From assembly GCA_965208575.1 (NCBI GenBank), contig CBDBOV010000002.1, forward strand, positions 32,001 through 96,000: 64,000 nt of DNA, given 5' to 3'. Positions 8,147 through 14,196 of this stretch are shown piece by piece. The notes below the pieces were generated by a model. That model saw only the letters and a list, made by a program, of their open reading frames with translations, was not told the DNA's origin and did not search any database. The stretch comes from Spirochaetia bacterium. Its GTDB lineage: Bacteria; Spirochaetota; Spirochaetia; SZUA-6; Bin103. Made by a program: the position numbers and the translations under genes. Each line of letters begins with the position of its first letter. The first letter of the stretch is position 1.

Positions 8147-10954
8147 ATGCGCGATAAACGACGCGCCAAGCACCGCGGGAAGAAGCGCTCCCCGCGGCGT
8201 CGCCCGCCGCCCGAGGTCCTGTTGGAGCAGGCCCGCCGCAGCCTTGCCGACGGCAACCCCCGCAAGGCGCTCGAACTGCTGCGGCACGTACCGGACGAGT
8301 ATGGCGATCCGGGAGAGGTGCCCCTGTGGCGGTTCTACGCCTGCGTCGAACGGGCGCGGCAGTTGACCGACAGGGGATTGGCCAAGGAAGCCGCCGCCAT
8401 GCGCGACCGCGCCGAGCAGTACCGTGCGGCGATTGCGGTTCAAGAACTGCCGCAGCCAGACCTGCTTCGCTATCTGCGCTGCCTTGACGGGGGCGAGGCA
8501 GTGTCGACGTATGCCGAGTATCTCGCCTGCCGGCCGCCGCTGGCCGCGGCCGAACGGGTGCTGGCGGACCGGCTGGTGATCGACCGATGCTGGCAGCCGC
8601 TGCAGCGCTTCGCGGCCGACCACTCGCTGCGGCGCGACGCGGAGCCGGTGCAGCGCAGCCTCGACGCAATGGACCGCGGTGAGTGGAGACGCGCGGCGGA
8701 TCTGCTGGAACGCGTACCGCGGCGGTCGCCGTTCGCGCCGTGGCGGACGTTGTGCAAGGCGATGATGAGCCATGCGGCAGAAGACGCTCGCGGCCTTGCG
8801 CGCGCCGCCGCCCTGCTGCCGGAGGACTTCCCGCTGGCCGGCACGGTTGCCGAGCTCAAGCGCTGCGCCGGCGGCGGCGAACAGGCGGGGCCGGCCGCGG
8901 TCCGGCGCGCGCTCGGCACCGACGGCGCGCTGGTGGAGGCGGCCGCCGGCAGGCTGCGCGGGGCGCTGCGCCGCGGCGTCGAGCACCAGGTCGAGCGGTA
9001 TCTGGTCGACCTCGCCGATACCGTCTGCCCCGAGAACTCCCTGCCAGTGCGGATCGACCTGCTGATGATCGCGGCACGGGCAATGCTGGAGAGCCCCTTG
9101 TCCGTTTCCGGCTTCTTCAGCGTCGTCGAACGGACCGTGGAGGAACAGTACGTCGAAAGCGTGATTTCGCAGGCCAACCTGCTGCTCCAGCAAACCGACC
9201 CCGACGAGCTGTGGGACGCCGGCGCCGCGGTGGCCTACCTCGACGATCTCGCCATGCGGTTTCCGTGCCCGGCCGACCAGGCGCTGGCCCGCGGCAGTGT
9301 GCTGGAGTCGCTGGCGCGCAGCGGCGTCGCGGCGGGGGTCCACGTGCACGGTCTCGACGCGGACGACGTGGAATACGTCACCACCCTGCTCGGCGGCCCT
9401 CCCCGACACCCCGACCTGGTGCCGGTCGACCTGCTGATGGCCGGCCTGGCTGCCGACCCGCAATCCACCACCGGCTTTCAATTCCTGCTCGACCTGCTGC
9501 GCCGATACCCGACCGCCGACGCCCGGCTGCGCGGCGTCCTGCACGAGCTGGCGGACCGCTACCCCGACGCCCACGACCCGTGGTTGGAGCTGGCGAGGCT
9601 GCACTATGCCCGCAATGCCTATCGGCGGGCCGAGGATGCGCTCGGCGAGGCGCTCCGGCGCGCCCCCTACGACGACCGCATCCTCGACCTGCAGGCGATC
9701 GGCTTTCTCAAGTCCGCCGACCAGAGCCGCAGACGCGGCCGGCTCGCGCTTGCGGCGCGGGACTTGGCGCGTGCCGCCGAGCTGCGGCGTCCGCGACTGG
9801 AGCCGATACTACGGGTCAAGCGCCTGCTGTTCGACCTGGTCGAGGCAGGCGCCGATTTCGAGGAGGTAGTCGCTCCCCACCTGGAGGCGCTGGCGCCGGC
9901 GGCGCGGCTCAGGACGCTGGCGGTGGCGATCCATGATCTGCACGAGGTCCGTAGCGTCAGGGACGTCGACGTGCGGAGTGCCTCCGCGTTGCACGAGGCA
10001 CTGGCCCGTGCGGCCGGCTCCATCGCACGGCTTGACCCCGATGAAGTGCTGGAGCTGGTGACCGACCTGCCGGCCGACTGCCGCATCCTGTACGGGAGTC
10101 TGCGGGTCGCCGGGGTTCTGACCGAGTGGTGGCCGGCGATGCTGGCGCGCCTCGACGGCGACCGCCTGACCGCGTGCTTCGACATACTGCTTGCCTGCGG
10201 CGGGCGCAAGACGGTGCGCTCCGAGCTGGAGCGCCGTCTGCGCGGCGGCCGCGCCGCCGATCACGCCGCACTGCTGGCGTTCTACCTGGCGGTGATCCGC
10301 TACGAGGAACGGGAGGACTACGGCGCGGCGCGCTTTCTCGACCTCATCGAGCGCGCCGATGCCGCCGGGCGGCGCCGATTGCGGGAGGCGGCGAAGCGCC
10401 TCGCCCCGGTGGTGGGCGAGCCGTTGCGGCAGGCGTTGCAGCGGTTCGACTTCGAGTCGCTGGAGCGTATGATTCCCTCGTTCGAACGCCTGCGGGAGAT
10501 GGTCGAAGACCTGGGAGGACCAGGGGTTCTGGATCAGGTTCTCGGGGAGCAGCGAGATGCGGAGGCCGCGGTTGATGCCGGACCGGCCGAGCCGGAGGAG
10601 GAGGTGGAGCCGGAGCCGTCGGTTCGCGATTTCCAGGCGGCGCTCGCCAAGGCGGCGCGCAATGGACGGTTGGACCGGACCGGGCAGGGGCTGCTGTTCG
10701 AGGAGGAGGAGACCCTGACCATACTGGATCGCCTGGAAGTGATGATCGGCGGCGCCGGACTGCGCGGCGCGGGGTCGGAGGTCATGACGGAGGCGGCACA
10801 AACCGTGCGTGCCGATAGGGAGATCGGGTGGATACTCGATGATCTGGCCGCCTGGTGTACGGACAATGATCGGCGTGACGAGCTGTCGCAGGAGCTGGAT
10901 GCCTTGCTGTACACGAGTCAGAACCCCGGCCACGCCGCCAAGGAGCAATGTTGA
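8147..10954 (+). CDS. Large alpha-helical/TPR-like protein (935 aa), first gene of the Hsp70 operon
   Basis: Long ORF; TPR-like segment DPWLELARLHYARNAYRRAEDALGEALRRAPYD; basic N-terminus, acidic C-terminal region; stop overlaps next ATG. Confidence 0.8.
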   Translation: MRDKRRAKHRGKKRSPRRRPPPEVLLEQARRSLADGNPRKALELLRHVPDEYGDPGEVPLWRFYACVERARQLTDRGLAKEAAAMRDRAEQYRAAIAVQELPQPDLLRYLRCLDGGEAVSTYAEYLACRPPLAAAERVLADRLVIDRCWQPLQRFAADHSLRRDAEPVQRSLDAMDRGEWRRAADLLERVPRRSPFAPWRTLCKAMMSHAAEDARGLARAAALLPEDFPLAGTVAELKRCAGGGEQAGPAAVRRALGTDGALVEAAAGRLRGALRRGVEHQVERYLVDLADTVCPENSLPVRIDLLMIAARAMLESPLSVSGFFSVVERTVEEQYVESVISQANLLLQQTDPDELWDAGAAVAYLDDLAMRFPCPADQALARGSVLESLARSGVAAGVHVHGLDADDVEYVTTLLGGPPRHPDLVPVDLLMAGLAADPQSTTGFQFLLDLLRRYPTADARLRGVLHELADRYPDAHDPWLELARLHYARNAYRRAEDALGEALRRAPYDDRILDLQAIGFLKSADQSRRRGRLALAARDLARAAELRRPRLEPILRVKRLLFDLVEAGADFEEVVAPHLEALAPAARLRTLAVAIHDLHEVRSVRDVDVRSASALHEALARAAGSIARLDPDEVLELVTDLPADCRILYGSLRVAGVLTEWWPAMLARLDGDRLTACFDILLACGGRKTVRSELERRLRGGRAADHAALLAFYLAVIRYEEREDYGAARFLDLIERADAAGRRRLREAAKRLAPVVGEPLRQALQRFDFESLERMIPSFERLREMVEDLGGPGVLDQVLGEQRDAEAAVDAGPAEPEEEVEPEPSVRDFQAALAKAARNGRLDRTGQGLLFEEEETLTILDRLEVMIGGAGLRGAGSEVMTEAAQTVRADREIGWILDDLAAWCTDNDRRDELSQELDALLYTSQNPGHAAKEQC

Positions 10955-11256
10955 TGTTGGCCCACTACCTGACCCTGGGTCTCGCGCCGAACGCCAGCCA
11001 GGCGGAGATACGGCGGCGCTACCTGGACCTGGTCCGCAGCCATCCGCCGAGCCGCGATCCGGAGCGCTTCGGGCGGATCGCCGCCGCCTACGAAGCGCTG
11101 CAGGATGACCGCTCGCGCGTGCGGACCGCCATCTTCGGGATCGCGGCGTACAGCGATTGGGAGCTGGCGCTGGACGCGCTGGTACGGGCGCGCACCGGCG
11201 CGCGCAAGGCGCCCGGCCTGCAGGCACTGCTGGCGGCGGAAGGACGGTCGCAATGA
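10954..11256 (+). CDS. Small J-domain protein with variant HPD motif (HPP)
   Basis: HYLTLGLAPNASQAEIRRRYLDLVRSHPPSRDPERFGRIAAAYEAL; AGGAG 8 nt upstream of ATG 10954. Confidence 0.88.
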   Translation: MLAHYLTLGLAPNASQAEIRRRYLDLVRSHPPSRDPERFGRIAAAYEALQDDRSRVRTAIFGIAAYSDWELALDALVRARTGARKAPGLQALLAAEGRSQ

Positions 11257-12128
11257 AGGCTTCTCGGACCGGCCCCGGGGGGAGCGAGCCGGTGGAGCTC
11301 GGCCCGGCCTGGATGAACCGCGCACGATCGAGAGGCGCGCCGGTCGACGCGGCGGCAGCGGAACCGGGCAACGCCGGCGCGGCCCACGACCAGGGTGGCG
11401 GCGACTGGAAGCAGCAGGCGCTGGCGGAGTTCCGGCAATGGCTGGACGAGTTGCCCGCCGCCCCCGCCGCGGCGCCGGCGGCGGAGCGGGAACAGGGCAC
11501 GGAAACCGCGTCCTGCGACCTGCGCGCCCTGTTCGCGGAGCTCGCCGCGCTCCGGCAGGAGGTGCGACTGCAGAATCGGGAGCAGTCGCGGGCGAGGCGG
11601 GAGCTGGCCGACGCCGCCGCCCGCGTCGGCGAGTCCGGTCGCCCGGCGGAGACTCGCGACCGGGACCTGGCGGCGTTCGAGGAGCGCTGCTCGCGGGCGG
11701 CCGAGAACCGCTGCCTGCTGCCGGTGCTCGACGTGCGTGACGCCCTGGTGCGCGGCCGCGACGCCGCGGTGCGCCTGCGGAAGGCGGGCGGCAAGGGCGA
11801 CAAGGGCGGCAAGGGGCGGCGTCGGGGCGCGCGCAAGCGGCTGCGCCTCATGCGGCGGGGGATCGCCGGGGTGATCGAAGGCTACGAGCTGGCGGTCAGG
11901 CGCTGTGACCGCATGCTGGCGCGATTCGGCGTGCGCGGGGTGCCCGCGGAGGGCGCCCGGTTCGATGCCCGCACCATGCACGCCGTGGACACGCGCCGGG
12001 TCAAGCAGCAGGCGGAGGGGATCGTGGTAGAGGAATACGTCAGTGGATTCGTACGTGACGGCGCGGTGCTGCGCCTCGCGGAAGTGGCGGTAAACCGCCG
12101 CTCGTCCGCGGAGAAGGGAGCGGATTGA
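11253..12128 (+). CDS. grpE: GrpE-like nucleotide exchange factor
   Basis: Coiled-coil N-terminus; C-terminal [12 protein letters not shown]...[26 protein letters not shown] overlap with J gene. Confidence 0.88.
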
Positions 12129-13891: not shown

Positions 13892-13896
13892 CCGCC

Positions 13897-14196
13897 GTGC
13901 GGCGATGCCCTACCTGCGGCGCCCGCCAGCGCGGCGGTCCCGAGTGCCACCGCTGCCGCACCGACCTGCGCCGGGTGCTGCGCGTCGAACGCTGCGCGGC
14001 CACCCTTCGGCAGCGGGCGCGCGCCGCCCTCGCCGCCGGCCGCACCGAGTCGGCGCGCGCCGCCGCCGAGCGCGCCTGCGCCCTGCACCGCGGTCCCGAG
14101 TCGCTCGCGGTGCGCGCCGTGGTCGCCCTGCAGGAGCGCGACTTCGCCCTGGCCGTGCGCCTCTGGCACGAACGCCGCACCCTTGCCCGCGACTGA
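13897..14196 (+). CDS. Small zinc-ribbon plus TPR-like protein
   Basis: GTG start 5 nt after the Hsp70 stop; CPTC...CHRC then helical TPR-like segment; buried inside the spurious 12247..14196 ORF. Confidence 0.8.
   Translation: MRRCPTCGARQRGGPECHRCRTDLRRVLRVERCAATLRQRARAALAAGRTESARAAAERACALHRGPESLAVRAVVALQERDFALAVRLWHERRTLARD

Follow-up and report, generated by a model that had tools for sequence, protein, structure and literature searches.

A five-gene cassette linking an HscC-type Hsp70 to a tetratricopeptide repeat superhelix and a J-like protein that lacks the HPD motif

The stretch of DNA analyzed here, called the window, comprises 64,000 nucleotides from a Spirochaetia bacterium (GenBank assembly GCA_965208575.1, contig CBDBOV010000002.1, positions 32,001 to 96,000 of the forward strand). 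It contains a compact cassette in which the gene for an Hsp70 (g4) is accompanied by genes for a large tetratricopeptide repeat (TPR) protein (g1), a short J-like protein (g2), a GrpE-type nucleotide exchange factor (g3), and a small zinc-ribbon protein (g5) (Table 1). We consider it probable that these genes specify a self-contained HscC-type Hsp70 machine with a two-chain TPR/J co-chaperone, serving as an accessory system beside the housekeeping DnaK.

Table 1. The five cassette genes and neighboring features, in window coordinates (aa, amino acids; HTH, helix-turn-helix; 2OG, 2-oxoglutarate; ORF, open reading frame)
Feature	Position	Strand	Basis and details
g1, TPR superhelix, 935 aa	8147-10954	+	Translation, Pfam, AlphaFold2 model
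g2, J-like protein, 100 aa	10954-11256	+	Pfam DnaJ, alignments
g3, GrpE-type nucleotide exchange factor, 291 aa	11253-12128	+	Pfam GrpE
g4, HscC-type Hsp70 (by sequence), 587 aa	12128-13891	+	Pfam HSP70, alignments, trees, AlphaFold2 model
g5, zinc ribbon then TPR-like helices, 99 aa	13897-14196	+	Translation, weak TPR matches
Fic-family gene remnant	7302-7786		Between M3 peptidase and g1; two pieces, equivalent to residues 108-144 and 270-394 of the Fic protein of locus L016
Intact 731-aa protein	14770-16965		Directly 3' of the cassette; N-terminal 2OG-Fe(II) oxygenase (Pfam; PADLOC 'CAS-associated 2OG')
Intact HTH + M78 peptidase gene, then short ATPase ORF	17023-18746		PADLOC RmrA, 186 bits
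Two Ppl pieces	18449-22061		PADLOC, model 4-218 and 215-292 of 894; flank IS110
IS110-family transposase gene	20128-21723	-	
pAgo/SIR2-like fragment	within 21938-26949		Partial PADLOC match
HmaC C-terminal half	22963-24654		PADLOC, model 469-920 of 941
HEC-01B C-terminal part	24108-25094		PADLOC, model 152-394 of 395
PDC-S01/DUF4143 end piece	26515-26949		PADLOC, model 290-408 of 412
Family B DNA polymerase gene, 872 aa	27233-29851		Far end of the lower-GC stretch

The five genes are tightly joined. The ATG of g2 overlaps the stop codon of g1 as TGATG, g2 and g3 overlap as ATGA, g3 and g4 again as TGATG, and the TAG of g4 is followed by the five nucleotides CCGCC and the GTG start of g5. Shine-Dalgarno-like motifs precede g2 (AAGGAG), g3 (GGAAGGA), and g4 (GAAGGGAG). 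ORFs, translations, and junction bases agree with the five genes, three overlaps, and final gap given in a preliminary description of this DNA, which had also noted the lack of hrcA and of a class A DnaJ; neither HrcA nor a full-length DnaJ occurs among the 24 neighboring ORFs scanned. An Rfam scan of positions 7000-15000 gave no match, and promoter and terminator scans at the cassette returned nothing above shuffled sequences (G+C content of the window, approximately 70%). A conserved stretch of 38 nucleotides lies 5' of g1 and is confined to the genus. Comparison with three relatives reveals purifying selection on all five genes, with ratios of nonsynonymous to synonymous substitution rates (dN/dS) of 0.19-0.76. 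The ratio is lowest for g4 (0.19-0.21), with values of 0.23-0.28 for g2, 0.31-0.45 for g3, 0.39-0.47 for g1, and 0.29-0.76 for g5, and the earlier view of an undamaged cassette under selection is thereby borne out.

The cassette is patchily distributed but constant in its makeup. With g1 as the query, relatives were found in 5 of 10 other genomes of the genus and 7 of 13 of the sister genus, and in none of 17 genomes from other families of the order. Gene order is the same in all 12 relatives with g1, of which 10 loci are complete and two are cut by contig ends. Five metagenome contigs carry g1 relatives at 39-46% identity, and the two that extend far enough (G+C 0.62 and 0.51; g1 identity 39%) contain all five genes in order. 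The five-gene arrangement is far beyond chance, given its recurrence in unchanged order across many other genomes. In one genome labeled as belonging to the window's genus (G008, locus L022), the cassette lies at another site, between a betaine ATP-binding cassette (ABC) transporter gene and a PBP2 gene, and in the tree its Hsp70 clusters with those of the sister genus, a hint of transfer or relocation of the cassette.

More distant versions were also found. A protein search with g1 through 401 genomes of the phylum returned the window's own genome only, and a search of genome contigs with g1 alone yielded one weak TPR match. The former result reflects a limit of sensitivity, because the module was later recovered, with an Hsp70-clade profile, from a distant genome of that phylum (G145, G+C 0.43), which scored 760 bits among 301 genomes of the phylum, versus at most 627 bits for all other matches. 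This locus (L074) encodes, in order, an 820-aa helical protein in which the g1 motif SRKSPFIYWR is present, a J-like protein, GrpE, an Hsp70 with the C-terminus ELNDILFFLEKK, and a zinc-ribbon/TPR protein. The C-terminal motif is absent from 14 other short Hsp70s of the phylum (L075-L088), beside which tblastn with the window proteins detected no J or GrpE neighbor, and which were set aside. In Planctomycetota, sampled around a Planctomycetaceae genome (L001) reached by chance, this type of Hsp70 occurs in 14 of 301 genomes, with scores of at least 719 bits. Twelve of these 14 loci were fetched and scanned with hidden Markov models: eight have all five genes in order, one is cut by a contig end, and three (G+C 0.37-0.39) encode a 724-864-aa TPR protein, a J-like protein, GrpE, and the Hsp70, with g5 not detected by the models. 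Source labels and Atlas clusters further name Acidobacteria, Spirochaetaceae, Kiritimatiellia, and Thermodesulfobacteriota, as leads only. The neighborhood survey called for in the preliminary description has thus found the flanking TPR genes co-occurring with the Hsp70, in the same order, across two phyla.

The cassette Hsp70 (Pfam HSP70 score, 451.6 bits) is distinct from the housekeeping protein. The genome (6.5 Mb, six contigs) encodes a separate DnaK on another contig, which scores 891 bits with PF00012 versus 399 + 52 bits for g4. In a PF00012 search of five relatives, each of the four cassette carriers has both a DnaK and a cassette Hsp70, and the one cassette-free relative searched (G007) has DnaK only. 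In NCBIfam, g4 is nearest to DnaK but falls below the equivalog cut-offs (NF001413, 477.4 vs. 648; TIGR02350, 471.6 vs. 822.55). It is 38-40% identical to the DnaK of its own lineage and that of E. coli, 36% to HscA, and 32% to E. coli HscC; identity to the near-clade cassette Hsp70s, from hosts with a G+C content of 0.51-0.72, is 65-88%. A private chaperone set, as first proposed, is therefore well founded in the separate DnaK, the Hsp70 clade described next, the five-gene co-occurrence, and the purifying selection.

Two indels and the tree position mark g4, as judged from sequence, as an HscC-type Hsp70. The first indel is a deletion of 24 aa in lobe I of the nucleotide-binding domain (NBD), which alignments place in g4, all cassette Hsp70s, and E. 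coli HscC; opposite DnaK residues 74-104, these proteins have 6 residues, compared with 27-30 in DnaK, HscA, and the lineage DnaK. According to a review (PMC8215388), the features of HscC include a lobe I deletion at DnaK residues 76-101 and an insertion in loop L1,2 of the substrate-binding domain (SBD). The lobe I deletion alone is not decisive, because many non-proteobacterial DnaKs share it (PMC8215388). The second indel is an insertion of 8 aa in loop L1,2 of SBD-beta, where HscC-type insertions have 4-8 residues; the segment matching DnaK 402-414 is 20 residues long in g4, 16 in E. coli HscC, and 12 in DnaK, HscA, and housekeeping DnaKs. This stretch has 16-23 residues in 44 of 52 nearest cluster representatives fetched, and both indels are present in 44 of the 52. 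A nine-residue deletion of lid helix B is a further HscC feature; the helix A/B region of g4 differs from that of DnaK, with no simple nine-residue deletion.

In a quick IQ-TREE analysis of 23 sequences, the 14 cassette Hsp70s group together as a clade (Shimodaira-Hasegawa-like approximate likelihood ratio test, SH-aLRT, 99; stem 1.35), separate from DnaK and HscA; E. coli HscC joins this clade with an SH-aLRT of 99 and a branch of 3.88. A FastTree analysis of 63 rows, without support values, places HscC inside a large clade of Hsp70s with the lobe I deletion and the L1,2 insertion. Both trees contain one named HscC sequence only, that of E. coli. The comparison with HscC made in the preliminary description is thus apt, and g4 neither groups with housekeeping DnaK nor is the sole Hsp70 of its genome. 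Among 1.84 billion cluster representatives scanned, full-length g4 relatives of approximately 570-625 aa form a graded series at 40-65% identity, named by their sources only as 'Hsp70 family protein' or 'molecular chaperone DnaK'; many of those fetched end in a similar [DE]-x-L-[FY]-[FY]-x-[EDG] motif.

The catalytic apparatus of g4 is intact and its SBD is unusual, both as had been described from the sequence alone. All 13 catalytic positions of the NBD that were checked match DnaK in the alignment, and the residues R167, N170, and T173 of the J-binding face are kept; these positions, and those of the peptide-cleft arch and latch, are taken as known for DnaK. The interdomain linker is likewise kept (AVLVD vs. 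VLLLD). At the arch and latch, g4 departs from DnaK, and these positions are variable in the family. In the AlphaFold2 model (predicted local distance difference test, pLDDT, 90.1; predicted template modeling score, 0.80), the NBD and SBD-beta are normal, and in place of the long lid helix there are a short helix (493-506), a disordered acidic segment (509-525, pLDDT below 50), and a three-helix bundle (529-586). Sequence and model together suggest an active ATPase with an unusual SBD, which has an extra loop and lacks the long lid helix. The C-terminus was considered as a free docking tail similar to the eukaryotic EEVD, and this was rejected because it lies inside a confidently modeled helix (569-586), which aligns with the last lid helix of DnaK.

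The J-like protein g2 matches Pfam DnaJ (PF00226) over residues 4-55 with 37.2 bits (cut-off 27.8). The earlier designation as a J-protein holds for the fold but not for the signature motif, as a contiguous HPD is found in none of 27 J-like sequences. The window's protein has HPP in its place. In the set of 16 verrucomicrobial and metagenome sequences the variants are HPP (13), HRP (one), and NPP (two), and in 11 further sequences they are HPPD (three), HGPD (two), YPPD, YSPD, F[ST]PE (three), and YTPE. The nearest E. coli J domain in a five-sequence database is that of DjlB (48% over 29 aa, E 4e-5). DjlB and DjlC of the E. coli hscC locus, which are the known partners of HscC, read HPE rather than HPD, as is also recorded in a large survey of J-domain proteins (PMC10410713). 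Beyond its J-like domain g2 has only approximately 30 residues, with no client-binding domain, and in the verrucomicrobial and metagenome near set this tail ends in an invariant PGLxxLLAAEG.

By sequence, g3 is a divergent GrpE. It matches Pfam GrpE (PF01025) over residues 153-281 with 52.8 bits (cut-off 25.8), lies below every NCBIfam GrpE equivalog cut-off (best 32.5 vs. 184), and has a long low-complexity N-terminal extension; the GrpE gene adjoins the Hsp70 gene in all complete loci. The sequence of g5 reads as an N-terminal zinc ribbon, CPTC-x9-CHRC, and its Pfam matches are to TPR families only, all below the cut-off. Its 91 relatives (86-124 aa) are all named 'hypothetical protein', and look-alike Atlas clusters are labeled Acidobacteriota, Verrucomicrobiota, and Thermodesulfobacteriota, again as leads only.

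The largest protein, g1, is by its predicted fold a pure TPR scaffold. Its match to Pfam TPR_19 (25.6 bits) lies just over the cut-off of 25, none of its 216 relatives (approximately 890-950 aa) is named, and its profile gave no match against PDB sequences. The AlphaFold2 model (mean pLDDT 82) is all-helical, with a basic disordered N-terminus, a TPR superhelix at residues 21-790, an acidic disordered linker at approximately 790-822, and a C-terminal helical domain at 826-921. The best Foldseek matches are scaffold TPR proteins (Ctr9, Ski3, TTC7B, IFT-A, and Naa15) and also subunits of the anaphase-promoting complex, at E 4e-6 to 1e-3 and with low template modeling scores (0.13-0.27). No enzymatic or effector domain was found by Pfam, in the model, or by Foldseek. 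Many g1 relatives end in a basic tail. The C-terminal helices of g1 (residues 829-935; 10630-10951), ...DELSQELDALLY..., resemble the lid end of g4 (13700-13888). Homology of this domain to the Hsp70 lid bundle, considered because of a common ELxxLL[FY], is not established (hhalign E 0.012, probability 3.6%).

A complete set of Hsp70, exchange factor, and J-type protein with intact ATPase residues might simply be a second DnaK/DnaJ/GrpE-like system that backs up general proteostasis under particular stresses, with the TPR proteins dispensable. An HtpG gene directly 5' of the module in one Planctomycetota locus and the reported Cd2+ sensitivity of E. coli hscC and djlB/djlC mutants (PMC8215388) would fit this possibility. 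However, the J-like protein has neither a client-binding domain nor HPD, the peptide cleft is unlike that of DnaK at positions that vary in the family, the long lid helix is missing, the set is strictly linked to a TPR protein of 800-1000 aa, and the distribution is patchy even among close relatives. General back-up is accordingly an improbable function for the cassette.

The proposal of a two-chain co-chaperone comes from a predicted complex. Residues 22-921 of g1 were modeled with g2, both entered as alignments, alongside three controls. The interface score (ipSAE) was 0.76, 0.75, and 0.75 for g1-g2, and 0.00 for the best of the three controls. Of 80 solved complexes, 58 pass the ipSAE mark, as do 2 of 110 mismatched pairs; with custom alignments as input, these counts apply here only roughly. 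At least 97% of contacts are common to the runs, and the partner pLDDT is at least 83. In the predicted interface, g2 residues 1-3, 6, 12, and 52-98 lie in a groove formed by g1 residues 145-440, so that the contacts are made by the end of helix III, helix IV, and the tail, and no residue from 13 to 51 of g2, the segment with helix II and the HPP loop, takes part. In the DnaK/DnaJ pair, it is the helix II/loop face of the J domain that meets Hsp70. The prediction supports, short of proof, binding of g2 to g1.

These features suggest an order of events. The C-terminal half of g2 would dock into the TPR groove of g1 while its helix II/loop face stays free for Hsp70; because g2 would be docked on g1 with its Hsp70-facing side free, the two proteins may act as a two-chain TPR/J co-chaperone that brings Hsp70 to one place. 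There, g4 would remodel either g1 itself or a client held by g1, g3 would reset and recycle g4, and g5 would be an accessory subunit, possibly an escort or adaptor of the Hsp70. The preliminary description had taken the large TPR protein to be the client of the chaperone. The predicted complex ties g1 to the set as that idea would have it, but a role as the client-selecting half of a co-chaperone fits at least as well. Within the two-chain arrangement, an adaptor role for g1 is a tenable suggestion that we hold at somewhat less than even confidence, and a role as the sole client is rather doubtful.

Alternatively, g1 may associate with itself, and the tethered Hsp70 may build or dismantle the resulting structure. 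Hsp70s act on scaffolds in this way elsewhere, with Hsc70/auxilin working on clathrin and HscA/HscB on IscU, although such parallels are analogies and not tests. In keeping with an assembly or disassembly machine, g1 alone among large non-chaperone proteins is linked in every case, it is similar to TPR proteins that serve as scaffolds in eukaryotes, the J-like protein is predicted to bind it, and its basic disordered ends would suit the preference for positively charged peptides that has been reported for E. coli HscC (PMC8215388). On the other hand, oligomerization of g1 is an assumption, and an adaptor role of g1 for another client would account for these observations too, so that we regard this alternative as unlikely. 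A bolder version, in which an HPD-less J-like subunit on the TPR superhelix non-canonically activates the Hsp70 as a scaffold-tethered motor, with GrpE and a zinc-ribbon escort, could control the state of assembly of the TPR platform and in this way serve as a chaperone-titration switch for proteotoxic stress or infection; we give it a slim chance.

Several points weigh against the HscC-type machine with a two-chain co-chaperone. The placement of HscC in the tree could be an artefact, since its branch is very long. An HPD-less J-like protein may not stimulate the ATPase at all, and the tail motif of g2, which lies in the half predicted to dock, is not kept in the Planctomycetota versions. The score of the g1-g2 complex is the model's own confidence, and the interface is not enriched in conserved positions (23 of 64 vs. 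235 of 836; odds ratio 1.4, p = 0.20), so that conservation was rejected as independent support for it. The large proteins of the most distant loci (L074 and L115-L117) align with g1 at hhalign E values of 0.016-0.17, compared with 0.39 for a control TPR protein, and their homology to g1 cannot be shown by sequence. Finally, a GrpE-dependent HscC-type Hsp70 is an extrapolation from gene linkage, because E. coli HscC is reported to work without GrpE (PMC8215388).

The surroundings of the cassette in this window led to its being described as the head of a defense island, and the debris of such an island is indeed there. Downstream lie the partial matches to Ppl, pAgo/SIR2, HmaC, HEC-01B, and PDC-S01 listed in Table 1, as well as the short ORF behind the RmrA-like gene, which matches only the first approximately 40 residues of AAA ATPases of the PtuA/AriA/GajA kind; together with the RmrA-like gene it looks, from the sequence, like a truncated two-gene defense system. 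The Ppl gene appears to have been split by insertion of the IS110 element. A lower-GC stretch extends over approximately 18-26 kb (G+C 0.63-0.66), and the family B DNA polymerase gene at its far end may mark a mobile element. Of the 731-aa oxygenase protein directly 3' of the cassette, approximately 570 residues are without a family match, and a tblastn search detected no copy next to the cassette of any relative.

The site itself, between an M3 peptidase gene and a major facilitator superfamily transporter gene, is variable in the genus: it is empty in G007, holds only an intact Fic gene in G009 (locus L120), and holds Fic and the cassette in L014 and L016. The intact Fic protein of L016 (394 aa) matches PADLOC SoFic with 148 bits. 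The setting is different elsewhere. In the sister genus the flanks encode a Sortilin/BNR protein, a creatininase, and CobW, and other flanks encode transporters, oxidoreductases, sigma-70, ClpP, PBP2, glycosidases, MutS, RsmE, NifU, CstA, and once HtpG, an Hsp90 whose gene lies directly 5' of the TPR gene of the module in L117 of Planctomycetota (1136-3136). Because the flanks in 26 other loci are mostly metabolic or housekeeping, we conclude that the defense association belongs to the variable site of this genome and not to the cassette. The conservation of the five genes expected in the preliminary description therefore stands, whereas defense-gene debris downstream of it is confined to this window.

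These observations bear on the proposal that the cassette is a stress or phage sensor, in which the chaperone would hold the TPR protein inactive and titration of the Hsp70 would release an activity that stops the phage or the cell. The broken defense genes and the intact RmrA-like gene beside it, the variability of the site, and the SoFic match speak for such a sensor, as do the reported placement of HSP70-GrpE-DnaJ/TPR genes in predicted GTPase-centered conflict systems (PMC7159879) and the reported mediation of bNACHT25 phage sensing by DnaJ (PMC12169576). However, none of the five proteins matches PADLOC-DB 2.0 at E<=0.01, and they yielded no effector domain of any kind (nuclease, protease, pore, NTPase, or other), g1 being pure TPR. 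Among 83 flanking ORFs in 14 other loci only seven have PADLOC matches at E<=1e-10, four of which look generic (two ABC ATPases, sigma-70, and RidA); the Planctomycetota flanks are metabolic or housekeeping by Pfam; and no relative was found in the viral contigs searched. Gene order and, in the near clade, the Hsp70 sequence are also very well kept. A sensor function is thus disfavored, and we think it improbable.

The HscC-type machine can be set beside several known systems. With E. coli HscC (Hsc62), g4 has in common the lobe I deletion, the L1,2 insertion, and the grouping in trees; g2, which is most like DjlB, resembles DjlB and DjlC in its non-canonical tripeptide, and the E. coli ybeQ-ybeR-djlB-ybeT-ybeU-djlC-hscC locus has annotated TPR-like Sel1 repeat proteins. 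There are also differences. The cassette has its own GrpE, whereas E. coli HscC is said not to use one (PMC8215388); g2 is a soluble protein of 100 aa whose tripeptide lacks the acidic third residue in the window's clade, whereas both DjlB and DjlC have a tail anchor and approximately 480 aa; and a single 935-aa TPR superhelix with a zinc-ribbon protein stands in place of the Sel1 and DUF1266 proteins. The DnaK-DnaJ-GrpE system has the same three kinds of component, with the same catalytic and J-contact residues, but the cassette lacks HPD, a class A or B J-protein, the long lid helix, and the disordered tail, is linked to two TPR proteins, and is accessory rather than universal.

The nearest described theme is that of the GAP1-N2 GTPase conflict systems (PMC7159879), which likewise have an extra HSP70 with its own GrpE and a DnaJ/TPR partner. 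Their defining members are GAP1-N2 GTPases and FNIII-repeat proteins, and they are reported mainly from actinobacteria and firmicutes, whereas the cassette lacks the defining GTPase: neither a GTPase nor an FNIII domain was found by Pfam in the five genes or as a recurrent neighbor in the loci read, and the only GTPase-like neighbor, the CobW-family gene approximately 1.3-6.5 kb downstream in the sister genus, is not linked elsewhere. By kind, the parts list is the same as that of the mitochondrial presequence translocase-associated motor (PAM; mtHsp70, Tim44, Pam18, Pam16, Mge1, and Tim15/Zim17/Hep1), namely an Hsp70, a recruiting scaffold, a J-like subunit without HPD, GrpE, and a small protein with a zinc ribbon by which the Hsp70 is kept in order (PMC9695410). 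This is an analogy of composition and not homology: Pfam connected neither g1 with Tim44 nor g5 with the zinc ribbon of Tim15, and, unlike PAM, the cassette has no membrane segments and no HPD-bearing Pam18-like partner. Class C J-domain proteins with TPRs ('DnaJ-TPR', PMC10410713) combine a TPR array and a J domain as a client-selecting co-chaperone, similar to what is suggested for g1 and g2; in the cassette, however, these are separate chains, predicted to dock, and HPD is absent.

The bacterial Hsp70 kinds recognized in two reviews are DnaK, HscA, HscC, and poorly understood 'derivatives' (PMC8215388, PMC13580251), and the former treats the function of the HscC type as unresolved. A term search of a paper on a Myxococcus Hsp70 (PMC8265645) gave no mention of GrpE or TPR neighbors. 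Our literature search, which left subscription journals largely outside, found no description of the arrangement, in line with the earlier statement that no functional characterization was known.

Overall, the cassette is widespread, with two phyla tested and source labels that point to further ones. An HscC-type Hsp70 is now linked to a fixed set of partners, comprising a very large TPR protein, a J-like protein with no HPD, a dedicated GrpE, and a zinc-ribbon protein, and biochemistry and genetics can therefore be directed at named proteins. For chaperone biology, the cassette raises the question of whether a J domain without HPD can drive the ATPase where the J-contact residues on the DnaK side are kept. 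It is also of interest that an HscC-type Hsp70 seems here to require an exchange factor.

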